Below, piece by piece: positions 4,051 to 32,618 of a stretch of DNA of 35,444 nt. Where the stretch lies: the IMG/VR virus record IMGVR_UViG_3300045988_134116; one strand, given 5' to 3'. A model generated the notes under the pieces. It was not told the origin of the DNA and made no database searches. It saw only the letters and a program-made list of their open reading frames with translations. This DNA comes from a virus. A program made the position numbers and the translations under genes. Every line of letters begins with the position of its first letter. Position 1 is the stretch's first letter.

Positions 4051-7000
4051 ATGGCTTCAAAAGAAATAAAATTCAACCTTAGGCTCGCTATTGACGGGAA
4101 GGAGCAACTGGTGAGCGCAGTGACATCGGCAAAAGAACTCAAAGCCTCTTTTAATGGCGTACAGAAAGAAGTTGATGACTTTAGCAACACCTTCACCAAT
4201 AAATTCAGCAAATGTTTTGCCAACGTCAACCAAATAATAGGCGCAGTTAATAGTGTTAGCGCGGCACTTCAAAGCCTCACGGCCGATAGCGACTCTTTTG
4301 CCAAATCAATGGTCGTAGCTAACACTATGGCGGGCAAAGGGGGCAAGGACTTTGCAGCGTTGAAAGATAGCGTGACCGACTTGTCGAAAGAGATTCCACT
4401 CACGCGTGACGAACTTGCGAACGGCCTTTACCAAGTTATCAGCAATGGCGTACCCGAAGACAACTGGATAGATTACCTGCGAGCTTCGGCCAAAGCGAGT
4501 GTGGGCGGTGTGGCCGATTTGGGCGAAGTCGTTAAGGTCACTTCTACGTTAATAAAGAGCTACGGCCTATCGTGGAAAGACGCTACCGCCATTCAAGATA
4601 AGATACAGCTAACGGCAAAGAATGGTGTAACGTCGTTTGAAGAAATGGCGCAAGCCTTGCCTCGTGTGTCGGGTGATGCGGCTACGTTGGGTGTGAGCGT
4701 TGACGAACTTATGGCCACCTTTGCCTCGCTTACAGGCGTTACAGGTGGAACGGCCGAAGTTAGCACACAGTTGGCGGCCGTATTTACGGCCTTGGTTAAG
4801 CCCTCTTCTGAAGCTACGAAAATGGCACAACAAATGGGCATCGAGTTTAACGCTGCTGCCATTAAGAGTGCGGGCGGCTTCCGTCAGTTCCTCACGCAAC
4901 TCGATGCGAGCGTGAAGGGATATGCGCAAAGTTCGGGTATGTTGTCGAAAGAGGTGTATGCAAAACTCTTCGGATCAGCCGAAAGCCTACGCGCCATTGG
5001 GCAACTTACAACTCAGCAAAAGGACAGATTTGCCGAAAACGCTGAGGCTATGAAGGGCAGTGCTGGTACGATGGAGGAATCGTTTAAAATGGTGGACAGT
5101 ACAAGCAGCGCAACTATTCAAAAGATAGAGAACAGTTGGGGCGGATTAACTGACTACATTGCATCGGCCGTTAAGTTTTTAAAGCCAGCGCTTAATTTTG
5201 TGGCTACTATTGGACTTGCTTTAAATGCCTTCCAAACCATAACGCTATCACTCGGAAAGTTTAAAATAGCGGCTTTTGCCGCAGCCGTTAGGATTAAAGC
5301 ACTTGCCGTAGCTCAAACCGTTTGGAAAGTTTCCACTATCGCGTGCGCCACAACTACACGTGTGCTCAGCGGTGCTTTAGTAGCCTTGGGCGTGAGTGCC
5401 AACGTGGCAAAAGGAGCTATTCGTGGATTGTTGGCTTCGACAGGTGTCGGCATTGCCATTGCGGCTTTAGGCTTTGCGGTGGAAAAGGTGATAGGCTACT
5501 TCGACAAGTCGACCGAATCTATTGAAGACAATACTGACGCGCTAAAGGAGAACCGACGTGCCACCACTCAGGCAGAGCGAAACCGCGAGGCGCTGAATAG
5601 CATTCAGAAGACAGCGGCCGACAAGTATGCCGACGAGAAAGCGCGCATCGCGGCACTTACGCAGATTATTCACAACAGCAATGCGGAATACGCGGAGCGC
5701 ATGAGTGCGATTAAGCGACTGCAAAGTATCATTCCTTCCTATCACGCACAAATCAGTAAGGACGGCTCGATATACGAGAAGAATGCGGAAGCGATTGATA
5801 AGTATATTAAGAAGCTGGACGAATTGGCTTGGGCTGAGGCTGCGGCCGACATGGTGAAGGACTTAAACAAGCAAATCATCACGTTCCAACTAAAGGCCGA
5901 CGAGGACCAAGAGCGCATCGACGCTTATCAGGGCAACATCAACGAGCGCAACAAGCAACGACATGGGGGAGCTATCGACCTCACACGCCCCGAAACGTAT
6001 AAGGTGGACGGAACGCCTCTCACGGCTCAACAGATAGGCGAGAACAGACAAATAGATAAGGCCAACGCACGCACCAAGGGATTTCAGAACAACGTAATAA
6101 AAGACCGTGACTACAACCTTGGACGCGCCAACGACTTGACGCAACGAAAGAATGCCGTGTTCGCTATGGCGGGCAAACGTGGCTATACTTCTGCGCTTCA
6201 TAATGCGTTAACGGGTAATGCCGAAACTCTCGAAAGGCCAGCCTACACGCCTCCATCGCACGCCACCACGACCACTCACAAGCCTACTCGCACCCCGACA
6301 CACACCCCCTCCACCCATACCGACAACGCTCCCACCTACGACGAGAAGAGCATTGAATGGTACGACAAGGAGATTAGCAAGCAGAAGGAACTGGCGCAAA
6401 GCACTAACAACCTCGATGCAGCGAAGAAGGCGATGGCTGAGGCTACACGACTGGAGGGAGAGCGCAAGGAGTTGGCCGTGAAGGTGGGAATTGAGAAGCC
6501 TGACGCGCCAGAGGTGAAAACTGCGTTGGAGGCTCTGCAGGACCAACTACGCGCGGCTCAAACGGACTTCGACAATGCCGTGACCGTGGAGGCGAAAGTA
6601 GCTGCCATGACGAAGGTGGACGCGCTACAGGCACAAATTAATGAGGCGACGAATGGGCGACTAACGATTGAAGCGGAGGTAGAACCGCAGTACACGCAGA
6701 CTGGCTCAGTAAGCGATAAGCGCAAGTCGTATGCCAACGCGCAGACGAAGGCCTCACGCGTCAAGAACGACTACGACATTGGCCTCATCAGTAAGGAGGA
6801 GGCTCAACGACAGGTGGACGACATTAACAAGGTGTTGTCGTCGCTGAAGTTGAAACCTATCACCGTGGACTTTGACACGACAAGCGTTGAAAAGGGTACG
6901 GGCAAGATGCGCGAGGGCGCACAGAGCATTCAGCAGTTGGGCAGCAGCATCGCGCAATTAGGCTCACAGGTGCAAGAACCTGTACTCAACATTGCGGGTA

Positions 7001-7464: not shown

Positions 7465-7596
7465 CGCCTATGGCGAATGTGCAAATGTGAGAATGTGCAA
7501 ATGTGCAAATGATTGAATGCATTTGTAAATGCGCGTACAAAGGCGACCATTTGCACATTTGCACATTCGCACATTTGCACATTAAAAAAACATACT
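7465..7596. repeat. Intercistronic octamer-array element IOE-3 (reverse core)
   Basis: Left arm GAATGTGCAAATGTGAGAATGTGCAAATGTGCAAATG. The core ATTGAATGCATTTGTAAATGCGCGTACAAAGGCGAC is inverted relative to IOE-2. Right arm CATTTGCACATTTGCACATTCGCACATTTGCACATT. Confidence 0.9.
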
Positions 7597-9972
7597 ATGT
7601 TGCATAAAAGATACGCTGGCAGTTTTGTTAACTGCAAGGGCCAAACGTGGAGGGTCGAAATATGGCAAGCGGCCAATGCGCCTTTCACTTCCGTTGGTAG
7701 CCTCACGTTTGATGCCGACACGCCACTTGAATTAGAATGGGAGGAGCGCGAAAAGTACGAAACCACTTGTGGCGCAACGCTCACGATCAACATCGTGAGT
7801 CCTGCTGACCGCACGTTTACTGACCTCTTCCAAATCAGTCCAGGCAATGTCATGGCGCACGTCTACCTTGACGATGCGCTCTTTTGGGTGGGTGGCCTCG
7901 ACTGCGAAACGTATGAAGAGCCTTACCAGTCGGAGAAGGACTACACCGTCACACTCACCTTTACTGACTTCGGCCACATGCAGCGCCTAAAGTATGGCGA
8001 AACGGGGGGCATTAAGTCGGTGCGCCACTACATTGACTATTGCCTTGAGCAGGTGGGCCTCAGCGCAGTGCCAGTAGAGGTGTTTACGTCGTTAGAGATG
8101 AACGACAACGTGCTATGGGAGCATTGTGACCTTACACGCCTATACGTTGATGCTGCCAACTTCTACGATGAGGACGGTGAAGCCTCAACGCTTGACGAAG
8201 TGTTGAACGGTGTGCTGCAACCGCTTGCCTTGCGTATCGTGCAGCGTGCGGGCAAGATCATGGTGTACGACTTGAATGCGTTGCGCAATAATCCACCCAA
8301 GGTAGAAGAAATCACATGGGACGCTACGGAGCAAACGCTATCGGTAGATAAGTTGGCGCAAGCGGCCGTCGTTAAGTTCTCGCCCTACACGGGTGGCGAC
8401 CTCCTGTCCGACAACAGCGTAACCATAAAACAAGACCGACTGACAGAGGTGGGCAGCGTGTTTAACATGTTTGGCCCTGGGTTCAAAACGTACGAGATAA
8501 GTCGTTTCTTCCATTCTGCCTCTGATAGTGCTGCCACTGGCCTTACGCAAAAGCACCCCGATGCGCATTTCTTCAAAATGGTGAAGACGGGTACGGGGGG
8601 CGGAGCGTGTGAGGGCCTTGCGTGGCTGGCCTTAACGAATTGCTGGCCGCGCAATAACCTCACGCTCAATGGGCAACAATCGCCTTTGGGGAGAGACGCC
8701 CATTATGCCTATGTCGAAGCTAACACAAGCGAAAACGTCGTTACGCGTGCCTTCAACGACCTATCGGGTACGTTGGACGAAGTGCTGATGCGTTTCCCTC
8801 GTGTGTACTGCCCTGCGGCCCAAAATCAAGTGTCAGAAGACGTGATGCGCTCTTACATTCACCTCACTATGGAGATGATGATAGACCCGCGCCTCAACCC
8901 ATTTGCCGAGGCAAAGGACGAAACGAACGAAAAGGACAACTTTAATTGGTGTAAGGTGCGCGAGGCTTACTGCTACATTCCCTTCTCGCTCGTCTTGTTT
9001 GACGGCAATGGCAAGGCCATAGCGCAATACCAAGCCAAAGGCTACAATAACGAAGGGCATTGGGTCGCGGTTGAATACGACGATACGAAATACTTCACGC
9101 ATGCGCCCTCTTACCTCCTCTACTATGCCAACTCTAAGAGTGATAGCATAAAGGAGGAGAGCGGCATTCAAGGGTGGTCGAAGAACCATACACACACCCT
9201 TGGCCACGAACGAACTAATGAACAATACGCCACGGAGGGCGAAATCATTCCCCTGCCGAACACTGCGGGTTACTTGGAGTTGACCATTTATACAGGGTGC
9301 ATCATCTTCGACGATATGGACGGAAAGGGGAAGGAATATCCCATTACCAATCCTCAGACGTGCCAACTCGACAAGTCGTTGCCCGACCCTAACGGATTGC
9401 GCGACGTGTGTATTAGCACGCAAACCTCTAAACGTGGGCAACGTATGAATTGGACGCAAAGGTGGTGGCTTTACAAGTTCCCGAAGTTGGAGATCGTACA
9501 AGGCCTCATCGCTGAATCGGTGGAGAAGAGTGATGCAGAATACAGCGCATGGATAAACGCAAGCGCAAAGGACGAGATAAAGATTGACACCATTTGCGGC
9601 ACAGCCTTTGGGAGCGACTTGGGGGTGACGGCACGAGGCGCTTACAAAATTTGGTACTCGTTTTCTCCTGGCCCTGGGCAGACGGAGATTCCTCAACGAT
9701 GTTTCCTGCGTCGCACCAACACGTCTGCGCCTTGGCTGATTGAGTACGACTTGTTAGGGCTACTCTTTAGCCAGTATGGACACCGCGTACCTACGCTTGA
9801 GGGAGAGGCCATTACTCCGCTCTCACCGCTACAGATCTTCACCGACCGCGCGATGCCGAGTGAGGACCTCTTTATGATGAAAAGTGAGGTGCTCAGCGCC
9901 TACGACGGCACGAGTAATATTAAATTTGTAAGGCTCGAACCCGAGGAATGGAACAAAGAAATCATTAAATAA
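7597..9972 (+). CDS. Tail protein (Dit-like N-terminal domain with a large C-terminal extension)
   Basis: 791 aa from the ATG at 7597 and directly downstream of the tape measure gene. The start at 7513 would translate the repeat element. The function is inferred from synteny. Confidence 0.5.
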   Translation: MLHKRYAGSFVNCKGQTWRVEIWQAANAPFTSVGSLTFDADTPLELEWEEREKYETTCGATLTINIVSPADRTFTDLFQISPGNVMAHVYLDDALFWVGGLDCETYEEPYQSEKDYTVTLTFTDFGHMQRLKYGETGGIKSVRHYIDYCLEQVGLSAVPVEVFTSLEMNDNVLWEHCDLTRLYVDAANFYDEDGEASTLDEVLNGVLQPLALRIVQRAGKIMVYDLNALRNNPPKVEEITWDATEQTLSVDKLAQAAVVKFSPYTGGDLLSDNSVTIKQDRLTEVGSVFNMFGPGFKTYEISRFFHSASDSAATGLTQKHPDAHFFKMVKTGTGGGACEGLAWLALTNCWPRNNLTLNGQQSPLGRDAHYAYVEANTSENVVTRAFNDLSGTLDEVLMRFPRVYCPAAQNQVSEDVMRSYIHLTMEMMIDPRLNPFAEAKDETNEKDNFNWCKVREAYCYIPFSLVLFDGNGKAIAQYQAKGYNNEGHWVAVEYDDTKYFTHAPSYLLYYANSKSDSIKEESGIQGWSKNHTHTLGHERTNEQYATEGEIIPLPNTAGYLELTIYTGCIIFDDMDGKGKEYPITNPQTCQLDKSLPDPNGLRDVCISTQTSKRGQRMNWTQRWWLYKFPKLEIVQGLIAESVEKSDAEYSAWINASAKDEIKIDTICGTAFGSDLGVTARGAYKIWYSFSPGPGQTEIPQRCFLRRTNTSAPWLIEYDLLGLLFSQYGHRVPTLEGEAITPLSPLQIFTDRAMPSEDLFMMKSEVLSAYDGTSNIKFVRLEPEEWNKEIIK

Positions 9973-14820: not shown

Positions 14821-14842
14821 TTTTGTGAGCTATTTGTGAGCA
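14821..14842 (+). promoter_or_regulatory. Candidate integrase arm-type site, left copy (TTTTGTGAGCTATTTGTGAGCA)
   Basis: This 22-nt sequence is repeated exactly at 15076-15097. Each copy contains TTGTGAGC twice, 11 nt apart. The two copies flank the tRNA-fragment core. Confidence 0.5.
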
Positions 14843-14896
14843 GCAATTAAAGCCAAATTCTAAAAGTATATGATAATCAATACATTATACACAATC

Positions 14897-14948
14897 GCGC
14901 ACCTGCTTTGGGAGCAGGGGGTCGTGGGTTCGAATCCCGTCGCCCCGA
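14897..14948 (+). other. attP core: 3' fragment (about positions 22-73) of tRNA-Pro(UGG)
   Basis: The anticodon arm CCTGC-TTTGGGA-GCAGG gives anticodon TGG with G37. It is followed by GGGTC, the T-arm GTGGG-TTCGAAT-CCCGT and the acceptor 3' strand CGCCCCG plus A. No matching 5' acceptor (CGGGGCG) or D-arm lies upstream. The integrase gene is 170 nt downstream. Confidence 0.8.
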
Positions 14949-15075
14949 CATAAGGAAAACCGCTGATTATCAAGTTGTTAAGGCTTGGTAATTGGCGGTT
15001 TTATTGTTTGTTGTTACTCGTTTTTTTACCGCATTTTGGCCTCATTTTGGCCGTTTTTGGCTTATTTTGTATCGT

Positions 15076-15097
15076 TTTTGTGAGCTATTTGTGAGCA
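15076..15097 (+). promoter_or_regulatory. Candidate integrase arm-type site, right copy
   Basis: Exact repeat of 14821-14842. It is preceded by helically phased T-tracts at about 15021-15080, spaced 10-11 nt apart. Confidence 0.5.
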
Positions 15098-15119
15098 AAA
15101 AGGGTTAAAAATGTAGGTA

Positions 15120-16391
15120 ATGGCATATAAATTAAAGTGGTATTTAGATTTAAGGCGTAAGGACGAACAAGGGAAAGGGCGGCTTTGTATCGTTATTTAC
15201 AATCGTGGAACGTCGGCAATGCTGAGCACGGGGGTGATGTTGCGCGAGGGAGAGTTTGTGAACGGTAGGGTGGTGGGCGCGCCCATGGCGGCACAGCTGA
15301 CGCAGTTGCTGCGACTGAAAATGGCAAAGGTGCAATTGACTGTTGAAGAGGTGGCGTGCTTTAATGATGTTCAAGCAATGAGGGCAAGCGAGATTAAGGC
15401 GGCTTTGCTCGATCGGCTGGAGTTGAATGGGAATGGGGGTGAGGCCGTTGGAGAGGAGAAACAGGAGGAAGCGCGTTTTTTGCCGTTTGCTGAAACGTTT
15501 GTGAGTCGGTGTAAGAAGGAAAGAACGGCGGGCGTGTATAAAATGACTTTACAGAAGTTGAGGAAGTTTTGTAAGTTGGAGGAGTTGTGCTTTAAAGATG
15601 TGACGGTGGGGTGGCTGAAGGATTTTGAGGTTTGGATGGCTGACACCTGCAGCACGAACACGCGGGGCATACACTTTCGCAATATTCGTGCCGTGTTTAA
15701 TGCTGCAATAGATGAAGAGGTGATACCGGCCGAAATGTATCCTTTTAGGCGATTTAAGATAAAGAAGGAGGAAACGATGAAACGCTCGCTAAGGTTGGAG
15801 GATTTGAGGCGGTTGATGCGTTACCCTTGCGAAGAGTGGCAAAAGAGGTATGTCGACCTTTTTATGCTTTCGTTTTATCTGGCGGGCATTAATATGATTG
15901 ACCTCATGGAGTTGCCTCCGCTGAATGAGAGTGGCGTGATTGAATACAGGCGGAGCAAAACGGGGGTTGTGTGTCGGCTGACGGTTCCACCTGAAGCGCT
16001 GGAGATTATTGAGCGTTATAAGGGGGTGAAACGTTTGCTTTATTTTGGCGAGCGTTTGAGTGGTGGCGTTGAGGCGTGGAAGGGTTTCCTTCGTAACGTG
16101 AATGACGGGCTGCAACGTGTTGGTCCGTCGTGTTATGTGTACGTAAAGCATAAGGGCAAACGGGCGAAAGAACGGGTGAAAGTGTATAGCGGTTTGTTTC
16201 CCGATCTTACCTCCTATTGGGCGCGCCACACGTGGGCAACGTTGGCCTCAGAACTTGACGTGCCTGATGCAGTGATAGATGCTGCTTTAGGTCACAAGTC
16301 GCCCTATCCAATGGCCGACATATATATAAGGCGAAACGCTAAGAAGGTAGATGAAGCCGTGAGGCGCGTGATTGATTATGTAAGGGGGTAA
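15120..16391 (+). CDS. int: Tyrosine-type site-specific integrase
   Basis: 423 aa. The C-terminal catalytic region has SYWARHTWATLA (HxxR), LGHKS and ADIYIRR (catalytic Tyr). The gene is adjacent to the tRNA-fragment attP. Confidence 0.9.
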   Translation: MAYKLKWYLDLRRKDEQGKGRLCIVIYNRGTSAMLSTGVMLREGEFVNGRVVGAPMAAQLTQLLRLKMAKVQLTVEEVACFNDVQAMRASEIKAALLDRLELNGNGGEAVGEEKQEEARFLPFAETFVSRCKKERTAGVYKMTLQKLRKFCKLEELCFKDVTVGWLKDFEVWMADTCSTNTRGIHFRNIRAVFNAAIDEEVIPAEMYPFRRFKIKKEETMKRSLRLEDLRRLMRYPCEEWQKRYVDLFMLSFYLAGINMIDLMELPPLNESGVIEYRRSKTGVVCRLTVPPEALEIIERYKGVKRLLYFGERLSGGVEAWKGFLRNVNDGLQRVGPSCYVYVKHKGKRAKERVKVYSGLFPDLTSYWARHTWATLASELDVPDAVIDAALGHKSPYPMADIYIRRNAKKVDEAVRRVIDYVRG

Positions 16392-16477
16392 AGTTTTTTA
16401 TATCTTTATGGCCAAAAATGTTTGGCTATAAGTATAAATTTTATTACCTTTGTAATGCAAAACAGAAAGGAACGCGC

Positions 16478-16678
16478 ATGAATAAATTGAAAGTAAGAGA
16501 AGTTATTCAGCTGCTGAAAAAGGAAGGCTGGGTAGAAATTAAGGCCAATCATGGCGATCACCGACAGTTCAAGCACCCCACGAAGAAGGGTAAAGTAACT
16601 GTAAGAGGTAAGATGAGTGAAACGCTTAACGATTTTCTCCTTCTAAGCATTTGGCGACAAGCTGGTTGGAGAAAGTAA
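16478..16678 (+). CDS. hicA: HicA-family toxin (mRNA interferase)
   Basis: 66 aa from the ATG at 16478. LLKKEGWVEIKANHGDHRQFKHPTKKGKVTVRGK...IWRQAGW matches the HicA pattern (GW...G(S/D)H...HP). It is followed by hicB. Confidence 0.75.
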   Translation: MNKLKVREVIQLLKKEGWVEIKANHGDHRQFKHPTKKGKVTVRGKMSETLNDFLLLSIWRQAGWRK

Positions 16679-16743
16679 ATTAAAAGGTATGGAAGGGGGT
16701 TGAACCTTTCCATAACCTTAGAATATATAAGACTTTTAAAAGT

Positions 16744-17157
16744 ATGGAAAAGATAAAGGTAAAGGTGGATTGGAGTGATAAGAATTTTGCAGCGGTGACA
16801 GATGATGCTCGTTTGTGTGGCATGGTGTTAGTAACGGCTTCGACTTATGAAAAGTTAATGAGCGATTTGCGTGATGCTATTGTCGAACATGTTGAAGGCG
16901 TTGTGGCTGATGGTGATGACTTGCCAGAATGGTTGAAGTGTGGTGTGTATGAGTTTGAGGTGGATTTAGGTGCTGCCGCTTTGTTGCGTTGTTGTTTGCA
17001 GTACACAACATTTGCGGCCGTTGCTCATGCTACTGGCATTAATCAAGCTTTGCTGACGCATTATGTAACGGGGCTAAAAGTGCCTCGTGACAAGCAGCGA
17101 GCGCGTATTGTTGAAGGTTTGCACCGTATAGGTGAAGCTTTGTTGTCTTTAAAATAG
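16744..17157 (+). CDS. hicB: HicB-family antitoxin with a C-terminal HTH
   Basis: 137 aa with an N-terminal HicB-like fold region and a C-terminal XRE-like HTH (FAAVAHATGINQALLTHYVTGLKVP). It sits immediately downstream of hicA. Confidence 0.7.
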   Translation: MEKIKVKVDWSDKNFAAVTDDARLCGMVLVTASTYEKLMSDLRDAIVEHVEGVVADGDDLPEWLKCGVYEFEVDLGAAALLRCCLQYTTFAAVAHATGINQALLTHYVTGLKVPRDKQRARIVEGLHRIGEALLSLK

Positions 17158-17188
17158 AAATTAAAGCGTTATGCTTTTTGTTTTGCAT

Positions 17189-17217
17189 GCCTCCCACGTG
17201 AGTGGGGGGCTTTTTTT
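17189..17217 (+). terminator. Rho-independent terminator of hicAB
   Basis: A 9-bp stem GCCTCCCAC/GTGGGGGGC with a GTGA loop, followed by T7. Confidence 0.75.
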
Positions 17218-17258
17218 GTCGGTTTCATCGTATTTTGGGGGGTGGTGTTCGCATATTG

Positions 17259-17299
17259 CAAAGCACCCCACTAACGCAAGCCGTTAGTGGGGTGCTTTG
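17259..17299. terminator. Strong hairpin, probable bidirectional terminator between the convergent hicB and repressor genes
   Basis: A perfect 18-bp stem CAAAGCACCCCACTAACG / CGTTAGTGGGGTGCTTTG with a 5-nt loop. Confidence 0.6.
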
Positions 17300-17321
17300 T
17301 GTGTATTTACATGCGTTATTT

Positions 17322-17346
17322 AACATAACATCGATTCTTTACATTT
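17322..17346. repeat. Left copy of the 25-bp perfect inverted repeat bracketing the repressor gene
   Basis: AACATAACATCGATTCTTTACATTT is the exact reverse complement of 17898-17922. Confidence 0.9.
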
Positions 17347-17353
17347 TGGGGGA

Positions 17354-17770
17354 CTAATGTCCCGCCAAAAGGACCTTTATAAGTCTTTCTTTTCCTTCTA
17401 TAAGTTTCTTTAGATACTCGTTTTCTTTCTGCAAAAAAGCCACGTCGGAGGCAGCATTCGACGTCAAAAAAGACTCGCTTTTATCGATACTTTGGCTATT
17501 CACAAGCATTTCCTGTAGGTTGTTATGGTTTCCACTAACATTTACCGAAGTACTATTGTCCTCAGGTAAAAGCATGTCCCCCTCCCCTGTAAGCAGCCAA
17601 TTACCATCAACTTGTGGGAAACGTTGCTTGATACGTACAAAATCTAAGGTCTCTCGTGCCTTCCATGTGGATACTGTGCTCTGACGCACGTTTAAAAGTC
17701 TGGCAAATAGCGTTTGATTACCATGCGCATATTGCAGCACTAACTGTTCTAATTTTTCTTTATTATTCAT
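17354..17770 (-). CDS. CI-like phage repressor (HTH, Phage_CI_repr-like)
   Basis: 138 aa from the ATG at 17770. It has the HTH GNQTLFARLLNVRQSTVSTWK and the signature NWLLTGEGDML. It is transcribed divergently from the early genes. Confidence 0.7.
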   Translation of the reverse strand: MNNKEKLEQLVLQYAHGNQTLFARLLNVRQSTVSTWKARETLDFVRIKQRFPQVDGNWLLTGEGDMLLPEDNSTSVNVSGNHNNLQEMLVNSQSIDKSESFLTSNAASDVAFLQKENEYLKKLIEGKERLIKVLLAGH

Positions 17771-17854
17771 TTTTATTGGTCTAAATGTCGCAAAATGCCT
17801 AAATAAAGCAAAAACGTTTGGTTTATGTTTGCAATTTATTATATCTTCGCACTC

Positions 17855-17869
17855 GTAAACAATGTTTAC
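17855..17869. promoter_or_regulatory. Candidate operator palindrome GTAAACA-A-TGTTTAC
   Basis: A perfect 7-1-7 palindrome in the divergent intergenic region. Related half-sites (ATGTTTAC, TATGTTTGC) lie nearby at about 17826 and 17918. Confidence 0.4.
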
Positions 17870-17897
17870 CGAACGCAATAAATGTTGTTTAAACTGC

Positions 17898-17922
17898 AAA
17901 TGTAAAGAATCGATGTTATGTT
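17898..17922. repeat. Right copy of the 25-bp perfect inverted repeat bracketing the repressor gene
   Basis: AAATGTAAAGAATCGATGTTATGTT is the exact reverse complement of 17322-17346. Confidence 0.9.
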
Positions 17923-17937
17923 TACAAGCAAAAGGGT

Positions 17938-18174
17938 ATGAAAAAAGGATTAATAAGGCTTCCGAGTGTTACGGCAACGTTGCGCAAAATGGTGATGGGT
18001 GATAGTATCCGATTGGATTTTCAGAGCGTGTCTCCGCAAGGGCTGTATCAGGCGAAGAAGAGATTGAATGCTCAGACTGGCAAAGAAGAGTGGAAGAGTA
18101 GGGTAGTGACTGACGAACGTGGGCGGAAGTTTTACGAAGTGACTCGCAAGGTCGTGAGTGGTGATACAAAATAA
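17938..18174 (+). CDS. Hypothetical early protein (Cro position)
   Basis: 78-aa ORF, the first rightward gene opposite the repressor. No motif recognised. Confidence 0.45.
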   Translation: MKKGLIRLPSVTATLRKMVMGDSIRLDFQSVSPQGLYQAKKRLNAQTGKEEWKSRVVTDERGRKFYEVTRKVVSGDTK

Positions 18175-18186
18175 TACGAAAAAGTT

Positions 18187-18384
18187 ATGACGACAGAAGA
18201 ACCAAGGGTTGTCGACTCGGGCCGCTATGGCATGAGCGACGCGGCAAAGATTTTGGGCGTTGCGCGTTGCACTTTGCGGCGTTGGATATATGCCGGGCGC
18301 GTGAACGTAGGGTTTAGGAATTTGAACGGACGAATGTTTATAACTGGACAGGAATTAAAAAGAATTTGGAGCGAGCAGTGGTGA
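18187..18384 (+). CDS. Excisionase-like / MerR-type helix-turn-helix DNA-binding protein
   Basis: 65 aa. YGMSDAAKILGVARCTLRRWIYAGRV matches the HTH_17/Xis-type motif. Confidence 0.65.
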   Translation: MTTEEPRVVDSGRYGMSDAAKILGVARCTLRRWIYAGRVNVGFRNLNGRMFITGQELKRIWSEQW

Positions 18385-18629
18385 TGCTGCAAGCGCAAGA
18401 GCGAGAGCAAGACTCAAACGACAAAAGAGCCAAGCAGAAGCGCGAACAGTGGTAATGCTGTGAGCGAAGCGTCAGGAGGCGGCCCTTGGGGTGTGTGCAG
18501 CGGCACATGTAGAACGGCTGAGGGCTGAATGCTGCAAGCGGTTGCGGTGTGCTGAATGGCGATGTTGATGAATGGCGAAAGAAACGACAAAATAACAAAA
18601 CAACAAACAAACTAAAAACGGAAAACGAT

Positions 18630-18890
18630 ATGAACATTTTAGATAAAGCGCTGAAGGTGGCGAAGTGTGCGGCCTGTGCAGCCGTTGTGCTGACGGGTTT
18701 TTATTACGCCAGCCGTATGGATTACGAGGACGCGGTGTTGAACGAAATGAAGAACAATGGTACTTACTACGCCATGAGTCAGGAACACCCCGATTGGGAC
18801 GAGCATCACATGGTCGAAGTATACAACCAATGGAAGCTGCAGCGCGAGGAGGAAACGCGCGCGATGCGTAAGCGTTACGATGGTCGTTAG
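18630..18890 (+). CDS. Small membrane-anchored hypothetical protein
   Basis: 86 aa from the ATG at 18630, with the N-terminal hydrophobic segment AKCAACAAVVLTGFYYA. Confidence 0.45.
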   Translation: MNILDKALKVAKCAACAAVVLTGFYYASRMDYEDAVLNEMKNNGTYYAMSQEHPDWDEHHMVEVYNQWKLQREEETRAMRKRYDGR

Positions 18891-18921
18891 TATGTTATAA
18901 CTTTTAAAGGTTGGTAAGAAT

Positions 18922-19299
18922 ATGGATAAAGGAGACGTACATGAATACGTAGAAAGGATAAAGCGCAACAACAAGGATTTGCACCTATTGCTAATCGACT
19001 TTAGGCTTTACATCGTCGGTGTTGAGAAGCGCTGCAAATTCCCTGACTTGGTAAGGGACTACACCTACGAGCAAGCAGGAATGGACTATGCTCTCCATTG
19101 TGTTGCATCTATTTTGGCGGCTTACAAGGAGAGTGGCGACGAGACTGACGCGCTCATCTCCTTGATGACGTATTGCAGCCGCTGGGCGTGCGCTTCGCCT
19201 TATAGTGACGACCGTTATGCCGATACGGAGCGTGCTAAGGGTGAGAACTCTATCAAAATCAAGATAGCGCGCTGGATAAGGGCCAAGGCGGGTGAATGA
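18922..19299 (+). CDS. Hypothetical protein
   Basis: 125-aa ORF in the same orientation as its neighbours. No motif recognised. Confidence 0.45.
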   Translation: MDKGDVHEYVERIKRNNKDLHLLLIDFRLYIVGVEKRCKFPDLVRDYTYEQAGMDYALHCVASILAAYKESGDETDALISLMTYCSRWACASPYSDDRYADTERAKGENSIKIKIARWIRAKAGE

Positions 19300-19435
19300 A
19301 AGGTGTGGAATGGTTTTACTCATATTTTTTATAAAGTTCTAATTGTATGCCCCGTCACGCGCTGACCATGGGCTTCTAATTTCTTCATAGAATGAGTGGG
19401 ACTATTCGGTTCGTGAGGAATAGAATAGTCAATAT

Positions 19436-19525
19436 AACGCGATAGGTGGTTAATCGGATAGACCGCGCTCTCTAATAGGCTGAGGCGCTTAGGCCGTTAG
19501 TCGGGTTCGACTCCCGACCGCGTTG
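19436..19525 (+). ncRNA. tRNA-like element A (class II tRNA-Leu(UAA)-like, degenerate)
   Basis: Perfect T-arm TCGGG-TTCGACT-CCCGA. Acceptor AACGCG(A)/(C)CGCGTT pairs at 6 of 7 positions. The D-arm GGTGGTTAATCGGATAGACC resembles class II tRNAs. The anticodon-like loop TCTAATA sits on a weak stem and lacks U33 and R37. Confidence 0.35.
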
Positions 19526-19601
19526 CATTCGTGTGAATAAGGTAGTTAGATTATTAAGATTGTATTCCATTACGGTTCGTGAGAATAGTAATGGGAAAGA
19601 C

Positions 19602-19744
19602 GAGGAGTATAGGCCGTTAATCGGATAGGCGGCAAAGAGAGGTATCGTCGTCTGCTGCATGAAGTTGGTTTTGGGTTATTGGGCGTGCAGTGGATAAGCT
19701 TCGAAACAATCGCACATTAGTGGGTTCGACTCCCACACTCCTCA
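19602..19744 (+). ncRNA. tRNA-like element B (acceptor, D and T arms present, about 55 nt extra in the body)
   Basis: Perfect T-arm GTGGG-TTCGACT-CCCAC. A perfect 7-bp acceptor pairing GAGGAGT (19602-19608) / ACTCCTC (19737-19743). D-arm GCC-GTTAATCGGATA-GGC. A hand scan found no canonical anticodon arm. Confidence 0.3.
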
Positions 19745-19776
19745 CTCAACCATTTTATTAACGAAAACGGAAAATT

Positions 19777-20226
19777 ATGAACAAAAGATTTTGGGTAGAG
19801 GTACGCGTCAGCTATGACGGCGTGGCCGAAAATGGAAAGGAAACGAACATGAAGGAGACGTGGTTGGTGCGTGCAGCCACTTTCGCTGAGGCTGAGTCGC
19901 GCGCCTATGAAGTGGTAAGTGGTAATCACAGTATCAGCGACGTAGATGTGGAGGCCTGTACGAAGCGCAACATCTCTGCGGTGTGGGTAAGTTCTACCAA
20001 TGACGGCTTAAGGAAGTTTTATAAGGTACGTTGTGAAGGCCTTCTCATCAACGAGGAAACGGGCAAGGAACGTCGCTGTAAGCGTGATTACTTGATCGGA
20101 TCTCCTAACCTGCTTGAGGCTTACGAGACATTTGTCAAGTGTATGAGCGACACTGAGTTTAGCGAGTATGAGGTGTTGGGCATCAACCTTACCCCTATCG
20201 TTGAGATACTGAGCGACCATGAGTAA
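19777..20226 (+). CDS. DUF4494-like protein
   Basis: 149 aa. FWVEVRVSYDGVAENGKE..WLVRAATFAEAESRAYE and the second half-repeat KFYKVRCEGLLINEETGKE match my memory of the Bacteroidota DUF4494 pattern. Confidence 0.55.
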   Translation: MNKRFWVEVRVSYDGVAENGKETNMKETWLVRAATFAEAESRAYEVVSGNHSISDVDVEACTKRNISAVWVSSTNDGLRKFYKVRCEGLLINEETGKERRCKRDYLIGSPNLLEAYETFVKCMSDTEFSEYEVLGINLTPIVEILSDHE

Positions 20227-24306: not shown

Positions 24307-24357
24307 AGGCACTTGATAATGACACAATTTATTTGTATCTTAGTACTGGTCCAGAGT

Positions 24358-24507
24358 TAATGTGCGAATGTGCGAATGTGCAAATGTGCGAATGGTCGCC
24401 TTTGTACGCTGAGTAATTAAGACATTATTCAATCATTTGCACATTTGCACATTCGCACATTTGCACATTGCCCACGCATTTGCACATTAGCATATTAAAA
24501 AATAACA
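24358..24507. repeat. Intercistronic octamer-array element IOE-4 (forward core)
   Basis: Left arm AATGTGCGAATGTGCGAATGTGCAAATGTGCGAATG. Core GTCGCCTTTGTACGCTGAGTAATTAAGACATTATTCAATCATT. The right arm is TGCACATT/CGCACATT octamers. Confidence 0.9.
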
Positions 24508-25210: not shown

Positions 25211-25381
25211 AGCAAACGAAGCCTGCCCTCATCACCAATGGCGCTCCCATTCACATGGGGGGCATGTTTTTTTAAGGGGTGGGGGGTGGCGTTAAACCCC
25301 GCCCAAACCCTTTTTTTTGCGCGAGCATTTTTTTCGATTTATGGAACTTTGGGCAATTCAACACCCTTAAACAATAATTAA

Positions 25382-25527
25382 TAAATGTGCGAATGTGCAA
25401 ATGTGCAAATGTGCGAATGATTGAATGATGTTTTAATTACTCAGTGTGCAAAGGCGACAATTTGCACATTTGCACATTTGCACATTGACCACGCATTTGC
25501 ACATTCTCACATTAACACATTGATAAA
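25382..25527. repeat. Intercistronic octamer-array element IOE-5 (reverse core)
   Basis: Left arm AATGTGCGAATGTGCAAATGTGCAAATGTGCGAATG. Reverse core ATTGAATGATGTTTTAATTACTCAGTGTGCAAAGGCGAC. The right arm of octamers runs to the terS ATG. Confidence 0.9.
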
Positions 25528-25875
25528 ATGGCACGCACCACAAAACAATGGTATGCCCGCATCACCAAGGCACTCAAAAAGTCGGGTACTTATAACACCA
25601 GCCTCGAAATGCAGATACAATCGTTGGCAGGAGCTATGCGCACGCTCGAACTCGCCACTGATGAAATTGACAGCCTCGACACCACCGTCGTGTGGGAGGA
25701 GACACGCTACGGCCGCAAGATGATGCCGCACCCCGTGTTTAAAATTCAGCGCGACGCACAAGCCTCCGTCACGCGACAGATGAAGCAGTTACAACTCACC
25801 ACTGAGGAGTTGACCACCGACCAGAGTTCCGACCCATTGATAGACCTAACCCAAAAGCTCATTAATGAACAGTAG
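25528..25875 (+). CDS. terS: Terminase small subunit (P27-family-like)
   Basis: 115 aa and immediately upstream of terL. ...RYGRKMMPHPVFKIQRDAQASVTRQMKQLQLT is consistent with the P27 family. Confidence 0.7.
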   Translation: MARTTKQWYARITKALKKSGTYNTSLEMQIQSLAGAMRTLELATDEIDSLDTTVVWEETRYGRKMMPHPVFKIQRDAQASVTRQMKQLQLTTEELTTDQSSDPLIDLTQKLINEQ

Positions 25876-26068
25876 TTTAATGTGCGAATGCTTAATCAAT
25901 GTGCAAATGTGCGAATGTGCAAATGTGCAAATGATTGAATAATGTTTTAAATACTCAGCGTACAAAGGCGACCATTCGCACATTTGCACATTTGCACATT
26001 TGCACATTGATTAAGCATTTGCACATTGATTAAGCATTACCACATTATCACATTAGCACATTATCAGA
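25876..26068. repeat. Intercistronic octamer-array element IOE-6 (reverse core, extended right arm)
   Basis: The left arm includes AATGCTTAATCAATGTGC. Reverse core ATTGAATAATGTTTTAAATACTCAGCGTACAAAGGCGAC. The right arm has GCACATTGATTAAGC twice, then CACATTAT/CACATTAG units. Confidence 0.9.
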
Positions 26069-27775
26069 ATGACCGAAGAAGAAGCCCACCGCTACCGAGA
26101 GGAGAAGCAGCGCGTATCGCGTTCGCTCACTGCTAAATCGTTGGAGTCGTACCACCTTGAGGCGGTCGACCCTCGGCTCTACGTGTACGTATCAATGGTG
26201 CGCGACAGCCCCACCGAGCATAACCTTTGGGAGCAGTTGGCCGTTGAGCGTTTCCTGCGTATGGTGAAGCGTTATGGGCTTGACGCTCGCAAGGTGCGCC
26301 GCTTCTACCTCTTCTACGAGTCGCTCTACTTTCCTGGCAAGGAAGGCATGCAGCACTACAAGTTGACGCCCGTACAGTGCTTCCAGTTCGCGGCCGTTTA
26401 TGGATTTTGGGAAAAGGGGCGTCGCATCGTGCGTGAGGTATGTCTGTTCGTCCCCCGAAAGTTTTCGAAGACTACCTCAGGTGCTGCCTTCCCCCTTTAC
26501 GACCTTTTCTTTGGCGACGCCAACGCCGAGTGCTACTTTGGCGCCAACTCTTACGACCAAGCGAAGAAAGGCTTTAACGTCTTGCGCGGCTGCGTGCGTA
26601 GGCTCGACCCGCGCGGCTTACGCTATACGGTGAATGAAGACGTGATTAAGAGCCGACGCCAAGACCGCACGGCCTTTGCTCAGTGTCTGACAGGCAACAG
26701 CCGCACAAAGGACGGATTGAACGCCTCGACCGTCTTAATCGACGAATACTCCCAAGCGCGCACGAATGAGCTACTTACCGTGCTTACTACCTCTATGGGC
26801 GTTAGGCAGAACCCCCTTACGGTGATCATCACCACCGCGAGCGACGTGTTTGAAGGTCCATTCTACTCCAAGTTGCAAGGCTACAAACGTCTGCTACTGG
26901 GCGAGGTGGACGACGACAGCGTATTTGCCCACCTCTTTGAACCCGACGTTGACGACCCCGAAGACCAACCCTCAACGTGGCGCAAGGTCCACCCCCACAT
27001 GGGCGTGACCGTTAGCCTCGAATTTTACGAAGCCGAATATCGTGCAGCACGTCGCGACGGTGCGGAGGCGATGTTGGCCTTTCGCACGAAGTTGCTCAAC
27101 GTCTATGCCGAACAGCAGCAGCGCTCATGGATAACGGCCACCCTCGCCAACGACATCATGCGTCCCTTCACGCTCGACGCGATCAAAGGCCGTCCCGATG
27201 CAATGGTGGCTATCGACTTGAGCGAGAGTGACGACTTCTCGGCCGTGACGACTGGCTTCTACTCGCCCGAAGAGAAGTCGTTCACCTTCCACACGGTCTA
27301 CTTCTTCCCCGATGAAGCCCTGGCGGGCCACCCCAACGAACGCCTTTACCGCAAGTGGGCCGCCGAGGGCCACCTCACGCTGACGCAAGGCCCTGTCATC
27401 AATTACCGCACGATCGTCGACTACGTGTTGCGCGTCAACCGCTCCGTGCGCATACTCTCTATTGGTTACGACCCTTGGAAGAGCCAAGAACTTATCAACA
27501 TGTTGGCTGCATCAGGCGCGCGTGACGTGTTGCGCGGAGTGAAGCAGACGTATGGCAACTTTACCGCCCCCGTCCAATCCTTTGAGCATGGCTGCAAGAC
27601 GGGGCATATCTTTATCAATCCTAACCCGATTAACGCCTACTGCTTTGGCAATGCCATACTCGACACTGACAACCTCGGCAACTCTAAGCCCATTAAGCGC
27701 GCTCGCTATCAAAAGATTGACGGACTCATAACGATGCTCATGTGCTTGAGACTGTTTATAGATTATGAGCGGTAA
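26069..27775 (+). CDS. terL: Terminase large subunit
   Basis: 568 aa. It has a Walker A-like region (VPRKFSKTTSGA), a DE box (VLIDEYSQ) and a C-terminal nuclease domain (AIDLSESDDFSA...IGYDPW). Confidence 0.9.
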   Translation: MTEEEAHRYREEKQRVSRSLTAKSLESYHLEAVDPRLYVYVSMVRDSPTEHNLWEQLAVERFLRMVKRYGLDARKVRRFYLFYESLYFPGKEGMQHYKLTPVQCFQFAAVYGFWEKGRRIVREVCLFVPRKFSKTTSGAAFPLYDLFFGDANAECYFGANSYDQAKKGFNVLRGCVRRLDPRGLRYTVNEDVIKSRRQDRTAFAQCLTGNSRTKDGLNASTVLIDEYSQARTNELLTVLTTSMGVRQNPLTVIITTASDVFEGPFYSKLQGYKRLLLGEVDDDSVFAHLFEPDVDDPEDQPSTWRKVHPHMGVTVSLEFYEAEYRAARRDGAEAMLAFRTKLLNVYAEQQQRSWITATLANDIMRPFTLDAIKGRPDAMVAIDLSESDDFSAVTTGFYSPEEKSFTFHTVYFFPDEALAGHPNERLYRKWAAEGHLTLTQGPVINYRTIVDYVLRVNRSVRILSIGYDPWKSQELINMLAASGARDVLRGVKQTYGNFTAPVQSFEHGCKTGHIFINPNPINAYCFGNAILDTDNLGNSKPIKRARYQKIDGLITMLMCLRLFIDYER

Positions 27776-28793: not shown

Positions 28794-28814
28794 ATTGTAT
28801 TAACTGATGTTTCG

Positions 28815-29061
28815 GATTTAGCAAGGGCGGGCTGAAAGCCCAATGTAGCACATAGCCCAGGGCAAGCGAAGCGACACCCTGGGTTACGGATTGCCATAGT
28901 ATTGACGCCCTGAAAGGGCAAAAGCATTCAATGTTGGAAATAGATATAAAGCTTTTGCCCTTACAGGGCGCGGAGACTCTACTATGCGGGAACCCAGGGT
29001 GTCGCTTCGCTTGCCCTGGGCTATGTGCTACATTGGGCTTTCAGCCCGTCCTTGCTAAATC
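28815..29061. repeat. 247-nt near-perfect palindrome (71-nt arms with 1 mismatch, plus an imperfectly palindromic interior)
   Basis: 28815-28885 is the reverse complement of 28991-29061 except for one base (G/A at GCAAGG[G]CGGG). The interior also pairs (GCCCTGAAAGGGCAAAAGC / GCTTTTGCCCTTACAGGGC), leaving an apical loop of about 25 nt. Confidence 0.9.
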
Positions 29062-29249
29062 TGGAACTTGAGTATTAATGTTTTACCGCTTTGTCTAAAC
29101 CAACTGATACCTTGAGAAATCTTTCGGTGAACATTGTTTTAAACACTGCAAATATAGCAACAATGTCACATTATTCCACCCAACTCTCACTTTTTTCAAA
29201 GAAAAACGCCCCAAGGTGGTACCACCTACACACCTTTTGCGCGTAGGGT

Positions 29250-30464: not shown

Positions 30465-30606
30465 CACACATTATTAATATGCTAATGTGTTAATATGCTA
30501 ATGTGTTAATATGCTAATGGCTGCGCCACTCATTAACACATTAGCACATTCCCACATTAGCACATTCCCACATTAGCACATTAGCACATTAGCACATTTA
30601 CGCCTT
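30465..30606. repeat. Intercistronic octamer-array element IOE-7 (variant family: CTAATGTG/TTAATATG versus CACATTAG/CACATTCC)
   Basis: Left arm (TAATATGC TAATGTGT) x 2.5. Core TAATGGCTGCGCCACTCATTAA. The right arm is 8 tandem CACATTNN octamers ending 9 nt before the protease ATG. Confidence 0.9.
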
Positions 30607-31269
30607 ATGAATAAGCAATTACAATTCCACTCCTCAGGCACCGTCCACGTGCGCAGCCGCCAAGGCAGCGAGGGCGAGGGCGAAAGCCGCACCATTGAGG
30701 GATATGCCATTCTGTTCAACACGCCCTCTGCCCCACTGTGGGAGGACGAGGACGAAGTCGTGCGCGAACAGATTGCCCCCGAAGCCATAACGAAGGACCT
30801 ACTCGACGGCTGCGACATCAAGATGACCATGAACCACGACTTTGCCACATTGCTTGCACGCAGCAAGCGCGGAGAGGGTACGCTACAGTACGACATCGAC
30901 GAGCGGGGCGTCCACTTCTCCTTCGATGCGCCCAACACAGACGACGGCGACCGCGCGCTCGAACTCGTACGGCGTGGCGACATCGACGGCTGCTCCTTCA
31001 TGTTCTCTTGTTCGTACCGCACCCCCGACGTGACGAGCGAGACGACCAAAAACAAGGAGACGGGAAAGGCTGAAACGCTTTACACCATTCATGCTATTCG
31101 TGGCATCTACGACTTTACGCTCACGCCCATGCCCGCCTATCCCGACACGGAAGTAAACGCACGCGACCTGCGCGGATTGACTCCCGCCCCCTCAACAGAC
31201 AACGCTGCCGCCCTCCGCGTCGAGGAACAAGTAAAGGCCATGCGCAGCGAGGCAAAGCTATCACTTTAA
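30607..31269 (+). CDS. Prohead protease (HK97 family, S78)
   Basis: 220 aa. IEGYAILFNTPS, MNHDFATLLARS and LELVRRGDIDGCSFMF match the HK97 protease pattern. It lies between the portal and capsid genes. Confidence 0.8.
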   Translation: MNKQLQFHSSGTVHVRSRQGSEGEGESRTIEGYAILFNTPSAPLWEDEDEVVREQIAPEAITKDLLDGCDIKMTMNHDFATLLARSKRGEGTLQYDIDERGVHFSFDAPNTDDGDRALELVRRGDIDGCSFMFSCSYRTPDVTSETTKNKETGKAETLYTIHAIRGIYDFTLTPMPAYPDTEVNARDLRGLTPAPSTDNAAALRVEEQVKAMRSEAKLSL

Positions 31270-32420: not shown

Positions 32421-32618
32421 ACGCTCGGCGAATGTGCAAATGTGTAAATGTGCAAATGTGCAAATGATTGAATAATGTTTTAATTACTCAGTGTACAAAG
32501 GCGACCATTCGCACATTCGCACATTCGCACATTTGCACATTAACCCAGCGTACAAAGGCGACCATTTGCACATTTGCACATTCTCACATTTGCACATTCT
32601 CACATTTACACATTTCCC
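32421..32618. repeat. Intercistronic octamer-array element IOE-8 (reverse core plus a second partial core)
   Basis: A left arm of AATGTGCA/AATGTGTA octamers. Reverse core ATTGAATAATGTTTTAATTACTCAGTGTACAAAGGCGAC. A right arm, then a partial core CCCAGCGTACAAAGGCGAC, then a second right arm running to the ATG at 32619. Confidence 0.9.

Follow-up and report, generated by a model that had tools for sequence, protein, structure and literature searches.

The immunity region described here lies within IMG/VR virus record IMGVR_UViG_3300045988_134116, a stretch of viral DNA 35,444 nucleotides long that was analysed as a whole and is hereafter called the window. It represents the complete genome of a temperate siphovirus, with genes for terminase, portal, protease, capsid, tail and amidase as well as a replication module, and it belongs to a Prevotella-type gut phage. 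Between the integrase and HicAB genes on one side and the early operon on the other lies a short CI-like repressor gene with its regulatory DNA, and the two are enclosed by a perfect inverted repeat (Table 1). The segment delimited by this repeat is found in both orientations among otherwise collinear relatives, and we propose that its inversion probably forms part of the lysis-lysogeny switch.

The two arms of the repeat, AACATAACATCGATTCTTTACATTT and its exact reverse complement, match at 25 of 25 nt and are 551 nt apart, just as the initial annotation of this DNA had reported. That annotation also placed the repressor gene and a palindrome between the arms, and both are there; the palindrome, GTAAACAATGTTTAC, falls within the 127 nt of the interior that are non-coding. 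When as many as three mismatches were allowed, the only copies of the 25-mer in the window were the two arms themselves. The claim that such a pair is unlikely to arise by chance is supported by 100 dinucleotide-preserving shuffles, which yielded no match, and by conservation: all close relatives, and also relatives with repressors of only 43-51% identity, retain the pair, its two arms having changed in concert. The claim must nonetheless be tempered, because the window holds numerous longer inverted repeats. All of these belong to one unrelated family built from 8-bp units, and the 25-mer stands outside that family.

Inversion of the segment among relatives

We designate as orientation A the arrangement present in the window and as orientation B that in which the interior is flipped; W denotes the window and L-numbers denote the loci of relatives. 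A scan of IMG/VR for the exact 25-mer returned nine loci on eight contigs. Their flanks are as in the window, and the segment lies in orientation A in three contigs and in orientation B in five. Alignment of the IMG/VR loci with the window by BLAST produced three collinear blocks of which the middle one (17322-17922) is reversed, with breakpoints that fall inside the arms. Further contigs of both orientations emerged from protein- and DNA-based scans of IMG/VR and public metagenomes. Over the aligned blocks, the relatives are approximately 91-99.9% identical to the window at the DNA level, and inversion of this one segment is the sole rearrangement.

Among close relatives, orientation A is represented by W, L019, L021, L026, L037 and L002/L045, and orientation B by more than 25 contigs. 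Once cassette orientation is normalised, the nearest neighbour of every A genome proves to be a B genome that differs from it at 2-10 positions over about 2 kb, which implies at least five separate flips among very close relatives. In one pair, an excised genome in orientation A (L021) and an integrated genome in orientation B (L035) are 2 nt apart in 1.75 kb. Both orientations also occur in a distant group, where L028 is in B and L027, L029, L030 and L032 are in A. The assembly of the Prevotellamassilia timonensis type-strain isolate contains both: a 314-kb contig carries orientation B, and a 1150-bp contig runs from reverse-complemented early-side flank through an arm into the promoter end of the cassette, which is the reciprocal A junction.

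The layout shared by distant relatives, with repressors diverged to the degree given above, consists of a hairpin, an arm, about 130 nt of non-coding DNA, the repressor gene, a second arm and the first early gene. It recurs in a Prevotella metagenome-assembled genome (MAG), an Alloprevotella MAG, P. timonensis and more IMG/VR contigs. Measured from one reported arm to the other, the interior is 531-568 nt long, rising to 995-1005 nt in loci with a tandem pair of repressor paralogues. Such tandem pairs are carried by the Prevotellamassilia-type phages L012 (9547-10405) and L033 (2211-3045), and the paralogues are about 72% identical in DNA sequence over 266 aligned nt. A scan of representative genomes found distant relatives only, and a megablast search of GenBank phages with window positions 15000-20000 gave no match.

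From these observations we conclude that the segment inverts precisely at the repeats, and that it has done so repeatedly and recently, in the lineage of the window and in distant relatives. An invertible immunity cassette had been among the explanations offered in the initial annotation, and the comparison of related immunity regions that it had proposed uncovered A and B alike: near-identical genomes differ in orientation with breakpoints at the repeats, and one isolate assembly holds both. The concern that related phages might lack the flanking repeats has not been borne out, as all relatives in the short-repressor clade carry them.

IMG/VR contains 80 loci that encode proteins with the N-terminal domain of this repressor, and 46 of these were tested for bracketing repeats. 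Within the tested set, repeats were found only in the clade of 134-145-aa proteins with coiled-coil tails (scores of 15-21, versus 7-10 in shifted controls); CI-like relatives of 210-247 aa gave background scores and had no bracketing repeats. A Peptidase_S24 domain is present in all five of the longer relatives scanned and absent from the repressors of 134-141 aa. Two of the longer S24-type relatives had their neighbourhoods read, and in both the gene is divergent from its neighbours, an arrangement like that of orientation A. Judging from these domain assignments, inversion appears to accompany loss of the LexA-like self-cleavage domain, an association that fits the idea of flipping as a replacement for SOS-triggered cleavage in the exit from lysogeny.

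The site of strand exchange

Imperfect arms in one clade narrow down the crossover. In L028 (B) and in L029, L030 and L032 (A), three positions differ between the two arms. In either orientation the outer of these differences is tied to the flank and the inner two go with the interior, which confines exchange to GAA-TACATG (L028 versus L029). The L013/P. timonensis junction contig is chimaeric in the same manner. Among close relatives, genomes with a central C-to-T change (ATCGAT to ATTGAT) always carry it on both arms.

Every arm reads, from inside to outside, as seven variable bases followed by xGAA, xTAA or xCAA, then six variable bases and TTATGT(T/A). Eight versions of the six-base centre were recorded (TCGATG, TCAATG, TACATG, TTAACG, TAAAGG, TTGGGG, TAGGTA and TCTGTA), each identical on both arms of its locus, and the mapped crossover coincides with this centre. 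Strand exchange takes place within the central 6-8 bp. Because arms that share only 9-18 bp of identity still recombine, recombination of the RecA type can be ruled out, and the pattern points to a site-specific rather than a homologous process. Tyrosine recombinases need matching overlap regions, and the features of the crossover would fit an enzyme of that family.

Two other accounts of the repeats and of the two orientations seem to us hardly credible. One, raised in the initial annotation, is that the repeats are paired distal operators for DNA looping. A TGTTTAC half-site of the putative operator does overlap the boundary between right arm and flank (17919-17925), yet the operator palindrome is absent from the arms and the arm centres vary freely between phages. 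The other is that the orientations are artefacts of assembly. A 25-bp repeat is shorter than reads and the usual assembly k-mers, so it should not by itself mislead an assembler, and contig orientation should reflect real molecules. In addition, the junction polymorphisms segregate exactly as reciprocal recombination predicts.

Predicted promoters and wiring of the two orientations

The Bacteroidetes -7 promoter consensus is TAnnTTTG, and the non-coding DNA of the cassette contains two exact matches to it. The box of a predicted outward promoter, here called P_early, lies on the strand opposite the repressor gene and 41-66 nt before the promoter-side arm in the eight loci measured, and it is exact in nine of nine loci. 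The box of the predicted repressor promoter, P_rep, overlaps the inner end of the promoter-side arm and is found exactly, at the same place, in each of the nine; it precedes the repressor ATG by 116-135 nt, and the starts of the two boxes are 52-80 nt apart. An exact box on a given strand has a chance of about 0.055 per region of such size and composition, and the whole window holds 21 of them. No plus-strand box occurs between 17904 and 23087, which leaves the early and replication genes without any other consensus promoter. In L010, L011, L012 and L027, an ATG within the arm is in frame with, or is itself, the start codon of the first early gene, so that no fixed promoter fits between the arm and that gene.

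A sigma-70 promoter scan found 6 candidates against 7.9 expected and is uninformative for a Bacteroidota host. The usual spacing between -33 and -7 elements is 19-21 nt. A TTTG in the early-side flank, 24 nt from the P_rep box in three clades, was considered as a -33 element and dropped because it falls outside this range.

Between the inferred starts of the two promoters, predicted near 17838 (+) and 17889 (-), lies the palindrome, a putative repressor operator. Its half-site TGTTTAC occurs four times in the window, with three of the four at 17855-17925. Judged by eye, the palindrome between the boxes differs in each relative, as expected for operators of different immunity types. These elements, predicted face-to-face promoters that flank a palindrome, would constitute a switch core like that of phages P2 and 186. 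The window lacks one C within a second palindrome (AAACGCAAAAACGTTT), just upstream of the P_early -7 box, that is present in 21 close relatives. The missing base could be an operator mutation in an excised A genome or a sequencing error.

In orientation A, transcription from P_early would cross the right arm and serve the first early gene, the excisionase-like gene and the replication genes, and P_rep would transcribe the repressor gene toward the hairpin outside the left arm. If the cassettes of L011 and L012 were in this orientation, P_rep would read on toward the integrase gene, creating a repressor-integrase operon like that of 186. In orientation B, P_early would be aimed at the hairpin and the early operon would lose its only consensus promoter. 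The operon would then stand behind the repressor gene, which is 13-48 nt upstream of the first early gene in B, and would receive only read-through from P_rep. That inversion would make the repressor gene co-directional with the early operon had been foreseen in the initial annotation, and in B the gene does lie directly upstream of the operon. The further suggestion that a flip might cut the repressor gene from its promoter does not hold: the -7 box at the inner edge of the repeat moves with the gene, and the outward early promoter would be disconnected instead.

Two plus-strand terminators lie to the left of the repeat. Predicted RNA folds at the junctions (-20.5 kcal/mol in B versus -8.7 kcal/mol for the A leader) do not differ significantly and their pattern is not conserved; the A leader RNA is less structured than 197 of 200 shuffles.

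Table 1. Features of the immunity region and its surroundings (window coordinates)
Feature	Position	Strand	Remarks
Left arm (integrase/HicB side)	17322..17346		exact 25-mer; inversion breakpoint in relatives
Right arm (early-operon side)	17898..17922		reverse complement of left arm; inversion breakpoint in relatives
Invertible interior	17347..17897		551 bp here, 552 bp in close relatives compared; both orientations with collinear flanks
Short CI-like repressor gene, 138 aa	17354..17770	-	helix-turn-helix (HTH) and coiled-coil tail, no S24 peptidase domain; Pfam Phage_CI_repr E = 9e-5; PHROG 'transcriptional repressor'; alignment
-7 box of P_early (predicted), TATGTTTG	17824..17831	+	exact TAnnTTTG(C) on that strand, 9/9 loci
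-7 box of P_rep (predicted), TACATTTG	17897..17904	-	exact TAnnTTTG; overlaps inner end of right arm
7-1-7 palindrome, putative repressor operator, GTAAACAATGTTTAC	17855..17869		between the inferred starts of the two promoters
Remnant of second palindrome (AAACGCAAAAACGTTT in relatives)	17805..17819		1-bp deletion here; interior 551 bp versus 552 bp in 21 relatives; alignment
Dif-like 28-mer AATGTAAAGAA TCGATG TTATGTTAAAT	17318..17345	-	inner arm, 6-bp centre, XerD-type outer arm; top matrix match; XerD arm 11/11 to E. coli dif
Dif-like partner 28-mer AATGTAAAGAA TCGATG TTATGTTTACA	17899..17926	+	same register; 4th-5th in window; equivalent arm 1st-3rd in several relatives
7-codon upstream open reading frame	17918..17941	+	ATG inside right arm; overlaps real start of first early gene
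First early gene, 78 aa	17938..18174	+	always first gene after repeat; 16 nt past right arm; no match to its product in Pfam, PHROGs or NCBIfam
Excisionase-like HTH gene, 65 aa	18187..18384	+	second early gene; Pfam HTH_17 E = 1.9e-6; PHROG 66 'excisionase and transcriptional regulator'
Strong hairpin, 18-20 bp	17257..17301	+	just outside left arm; same place in L010, L012, L027, L028
Intrinsic terminator after hicB	17189..17210	+	predicted to insulate cassette from integrase/hicAB transcription
HicA toxin and HicB-like antitoxin genes	16418..17157	+	Pfam HicA_toxin; between integrase and cassette; pair conserved in relatives
Tyrosine integrase	15120..16391	+	931 nt left of cassette
attP core, 3' fragment of tRNA-Pro(TGG)	14897..14950	+	starts just before anticodon stem; relatives carry complete tRNA-Pro here (attL)
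Two exact 21-bp direct repeats TTTGTGAGCTATTTGTGAGCA	14822-14842, 15077-15097		putative integrase arm-type sites; flank attP core
Palindromic element copies	1-55 with 35320-35444, 562-760, 7476-7600, 24351-24500, 25376-25540, 25880-26080, 30476-30610, 32423-32614

Orientation and integration state

Genomes were scored as integrated when a complete tRNA-Pro gene stands next to the integrase gene and as excised when an attP fragment is found there. Among close relatives, integrated contigs number 18 in B and 0 in A. The excised genomes comprise four in A (the window, L021, L026 and L037) and three contigs in B that show no differences among themselves over 1.75 kb. Half of the integrated set consists of nine non-identical contigs found in IMG/VR and ENA. 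The other nine belong to the ten longest contigs (55-131 kb) in which the exact first early protein is encoded. A hand-computed hypergeometric tail comes to about 0.003 when contigs are counted and to about 0.0006 when lineages are, with the identical B trio taken once. The distant relatives L011 and L012 are also integrated and in B. A look-up of a junction open reading frame (ORF), meant to give an unbiased sample of orientation A, returned one 2.4-kb contig. Orientation tracks integration state in close relatives, and A is found there only in excised genomes.

We consider it probable, with a rough probability of 0.62, that a site-specific inversion switch recombines at the repeats and carries the core of the lysis-lysogeny circuit, with B as the locked state and an Xer-type enzyme as the likely invertase. 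B would act as a DNA-level lock on lysogeny, and A would be the canonical, induction-competent state. Lysogens in the A state would be depleted by induction, and particles would derive from A. For phages with a repressor that lacks a RecA/LexA-type self-cleavage domain, flipping would thereby determine how often spontaneous induction occurs.

The wiring might instead be reversed. B, in which an HTH gene heads a single rightward operon, would then be expressed or lytic-competent, and A would be a silent or transmission form. The repressor and first early genes in B are indeed packed as in an operon, with no terminator in the short gap between them, and one integrated relative is in A. We nevertheless judge this arrangement improbable. 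Assemblies report the majority state of a lysogen population, and 18 of 18 integrated close relatives are in B. Moreover, A is the arrangement of the two S24-type CI-like relatives described above, and the conserved outward promoter reaches the early genes in A only.

It is more doubtful still that inversion has no function and merely reflects recombinase sites that arose fortuitously, or homologous recombination across short repeats; we give this very little credence. Passive flipping could occur between any inverted pair of Xer-like sites, and the consequences for expression are predictions. However, the pair has been kept, with coordinated changes at its centres, despite the divergence of the repressors and differences in the interiors, and the recombination of arms with so little shared sequence excludes RecA-type exchange. 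Orientation also correlates with integration state, and both promoters lie precisely within the segment.

Candidate recombinases

For the inversion switch that we favour, the arms themselves hint at an enzyme. A position matrix was built from 29 published chromosomal dif sites only, and by this matrix the left dif-like site ranks first of 70,888 window positions, with a score that shuffles reach in 0.5-1.5% of trials. In loci from other clades, an arm in the same register ranks first in seven of eight and second in the eighth, and the two arms take both first and second place in L012, L027 and L033. Each arm conforms to the 11-6-11 plan of chromosomal dif sites, and the left site of the window carries the conserved XerD arm TTATGTnAAnT. 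The dif site of E. coli is GGTGCGCATAA TGTATA TTATGTTAAAT, and the XerC arm of B. subtilis dif also ends in AGAA (PMC3025954). Prevotella and Bacteroides encode XerC/D homologues, and microvirus proviruses in these bacteria are flanked by dif-like sites (PMC3091885).

Among the window ORFs scanned, the tyrosine integrase alone was recognised as a recombinase, and its NCBIfam matches were generic tyrosine-recombinase ones only. No serine resolvase/invertase domain was found among the same ORFs, and no invertase gene is adjacent to the segment. The phage integrase might flip the cassette itself, perhaps with the excisionase-like protein setting the direction, in which case excision and the B-to-A flip would be one reaction. 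In those relatives where the integrase gene was identified, about 1 kb or less separates it from the cassette, and the restriction of A to excised close relatives is what one enzyme pair performing both tasks would give. However, the integrases of the window and of L012 have no detectable similarity by BLASTP (E = 0.39), and the integrase families use different tRNA targets (Pro versus Met or Ser), yet the arms are nearly the same: AAACATAAC-GTTA-ATTCTTTACA in L011/L012 versus AACATAAC-ATCG-ATTCTTTACA in the window type. The GC-rich attP core (the 3' part of tRNA-Pro) is unlike the AT-rich arms, the 21-bp arm-type repeat of the integrase occurs at attP only and not near the cassette, and the arms are the best dif-like sequences in nearly every locus.

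Because unrelated integrases share these arms, and because the arms resemble dif/Xer sites, we regard the integrase as an unlikely invertase. The initial annotation was thus correct about a tyrosine recombinase gene roughly 1 kb away, but the role it implied for that gene is improbable. Judging from the arms, a host Xer-type tyrosine recombinase is the most likely invertase, at somewhat better than even odds. Some other host recombinase takes whatever likelihood these two candidates leave.

Several points weigh against the switch as proposed here. By the matrix, the inner arm is poor as an XerC arm, and the shared part is only the ..GAA, ..TAA or ..CAA end. The inner arm doubles as the P_rep -7 box and the outer early-side arm as the ATG of the first early gene, so that part of the arm conservation is not about recombinase binding. 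The matrix may not reflect the dif site of Prevotella itself, as published predictions for Bacteroidia are inconsistent and unreliable. The distant relative L029 is integrated yet in A, which means that A is compatible with integration, and one excised lineage is in B. The ten longest contigs were ordered by length, which biases them toward integrated forms, and some contigs from different collections are possibly one assembly. No terminator-like structure was found between the repressor gene and the early operon in B, and a B-state lysogen would have to tolerate read-through. Finally, we infer that the promoters are active, which way the flip acts and which enzyme performs it.

A bolder version of the inversion switch can be put forward only tentatively, as a possibility that we would not expect to hold. 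In this version lysogeny, throughout a widespread family of Prevotellaceae phages from the human gut, is maintained mainly by DNA orientation rather than by repressor occupancy alone, with host XerC/D, the enzymes of chromosome-dimer resolution, flipping the dif-flanked cassette. Induction would then be stochastic, independent of SOS and possibly coupled to cell division.

Comparison with known systems

Bacteroidales promoter invertons, which control capsule, fimbriae, SusC/D and resistance genes, resemble the cassette in several respects. Short inverted repeats surround a few hundred base pairs with an outward TAnnTTTG promoter, both orientations coexist in populations, and the crossover is of the tyrosine-recombinase type. 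Unlike these invertons, the cassette has the early/lytic operon of a phage as its target rather than a surface structure, and its arms are dif-like. It also adds a complete regulator gene and an opposing second promoter, so that two outputs would be swapped instead of one being turned on or off.

The immunity switches of P2 and 186 set C or CI against Cox or Apl from face-to-face promoters. The cassette shares with them a short non-cleavable repressor and, as read from sequence alone, lysogenic and lytic promoters that face each other across an operator. The lytic operon has an excisionase-like HTH gene near its start, comparable to Cox and Apl, and 186 has the repressor-integrase operon that L011 and L012 would form in orientation A. 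In contrast, neither P2 nor 186 is known to carry recombination sites on either side of its switch or to invert the DNA between. Programmed DNA inversion is known from other phage elements, including Gin of Mu, Cin of P1, Pin of e14 and the tail-fibre shufflons. Those systems rely on an adjacent phage serine (or Rci-type) invertase and vary tail-fibre genes, whereas the target here is the immunity region.

Dif-like 11-6-11 sites that preserve the XerD arm well but have a degenerate XerC arm are also carried by the CTX, VGJ and TLC phages, by the microvirus proviruses of Bacteroidales and by the pdif modules of Acinetobacter. The pdif modules of Acinetobacter plasmids are bracketed by inversely oriented dif-like sites. 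The initial annotation had also suggested the ends of a mobile immunity module, an idea of which only this resemblance to dif-flanked modules is left. Elements that exploit Xer do so for integration, excision or module exchange; here integration is left to the phage's own integrase, which targets a tRNA gene, and inversion of a regulatory cassette would be the task of the dif-like pair. Xer-family recombinases can also act in phase variation, as with Mycoplasma Xer1, which drives phase-variable inversions. The XerC protein of Ureaplasma is described (PMC3599477) as an Xer-type recombinase that acts on short inverted repeats as a phase-variation switch. These Mollicute inversions concern cellular surface-antigen loci and not the decision circuit of a phage.

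Synthetic recombinase memory latches likewise flip a promoter segment between two stable states to set the direction in which transcription exits, and 'rewritable' DNA registers based on an integrase and its excisionase exist. They differ in being engineered with serine integrases, for which distinct attB/attP and attL/attR states give directionality. A full-text literature search found no invertible phage repressor or immunity cassette, although this does not prove its absence from the literature. The nearest reports concern phage tail-fibre shufflons, capsule invertons of the host with an effect on its susceptibility to phages, phage integration that depends on Xer, and inversions by Xer-family enzymes in Mollicutes. 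The cassette would work like a Bacteroidales promoter inverton joined to a P2/186-type switch with Xer-like arms, in which the target and the wiring have no precedent that we found.

Additional features of the genome

The site of the hicAB pair varies among relatives: L128 carries extra DUF4160/DUF2442 genes, and L021 and L035 have an insertion. In L027 there are no genes between, and the integrase gene is directly beside the cassette. A weak dif-like 28-mer (14868-14895) abuts the attP core. The integrated relative L131 contains an extra tyrosine recombinase of XerC/D architecture (336 aa; Phage_int_SAM_1/4 and Phage_integrase) together with a 333-aa ORF in its early region (5005-6976), probably as a mobile insertion of separate origin.

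At least nine copies of a palindromic element of 110-130 bp are present in the window, mostly in or at gaps between late-region genes, and the element is also found in relatives. Each comprises about four tandem 8-bp units (AATGTGCR), a conserved spacer and inverted units (YGCACATT); it could be a terminator, a regulator array or a miniature mobile element. One copy of this dispersed repeat spans the ends of the window, which suggests that the genome is circularly permuted.

Two tRNA-like elements are located in the early operon (19436-19526 and about 19600-19745), one of them with an abnormal 4-base anticodon according to ARAGORN. Both have a T-arm-like GGGTTCGACTCCC and a common motif, ATAGGYSGTTAATCGGATAG, and homologous calls (tRNA-Gly or undetermined) were obtained in L012, L022, L028 and L032. 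Upstream of the portal gene is a 126-nt imperfect inverted repeat (28803-28928 and 28948-29073) that is 85% complementary and has a 19-nt loop. A 15-bp tandem unit, TTAAAGGCCGCAGGA, is repeated about four times inside an ORF at 2759-2848, and CCCTAAT-like 7-bp repeats occur near the right end of the window (34316-34378).

Implications

The exact 78-aa first early protein is indexed in 1857 public assembly blocks, Hadza gut samples included, which indicates that this phage lineage is very common in the human gut. Orientation ratios could be read from existing metagenomes and viromes as a marker of Prevotella prophage activity, and the cassette may offer a compact natural promoter-swapping latch for engineering in Bacteroidota.

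Textbook lysis-lysogeny switches are protein-occupancy circuits that are released by repressor cleavage or by antirepressors. In the switch proposed here, the DNA of the circuit would itself be a two-state memory element, which would explain how lysogeny can be exited with a non-cleavable repressor. A predicted consequence is the formation of lysogen subpopulations that hedge their bets. If the link to Xer is true, regulation by inversion would join the ways in which mobile elements exploit the dimer-resolution machinery of their hosts. Should lysogeny indeed be held by orientation through XerC/D, it would represent a new viral use of Xer and a new class of lysis-lysogeny switch.

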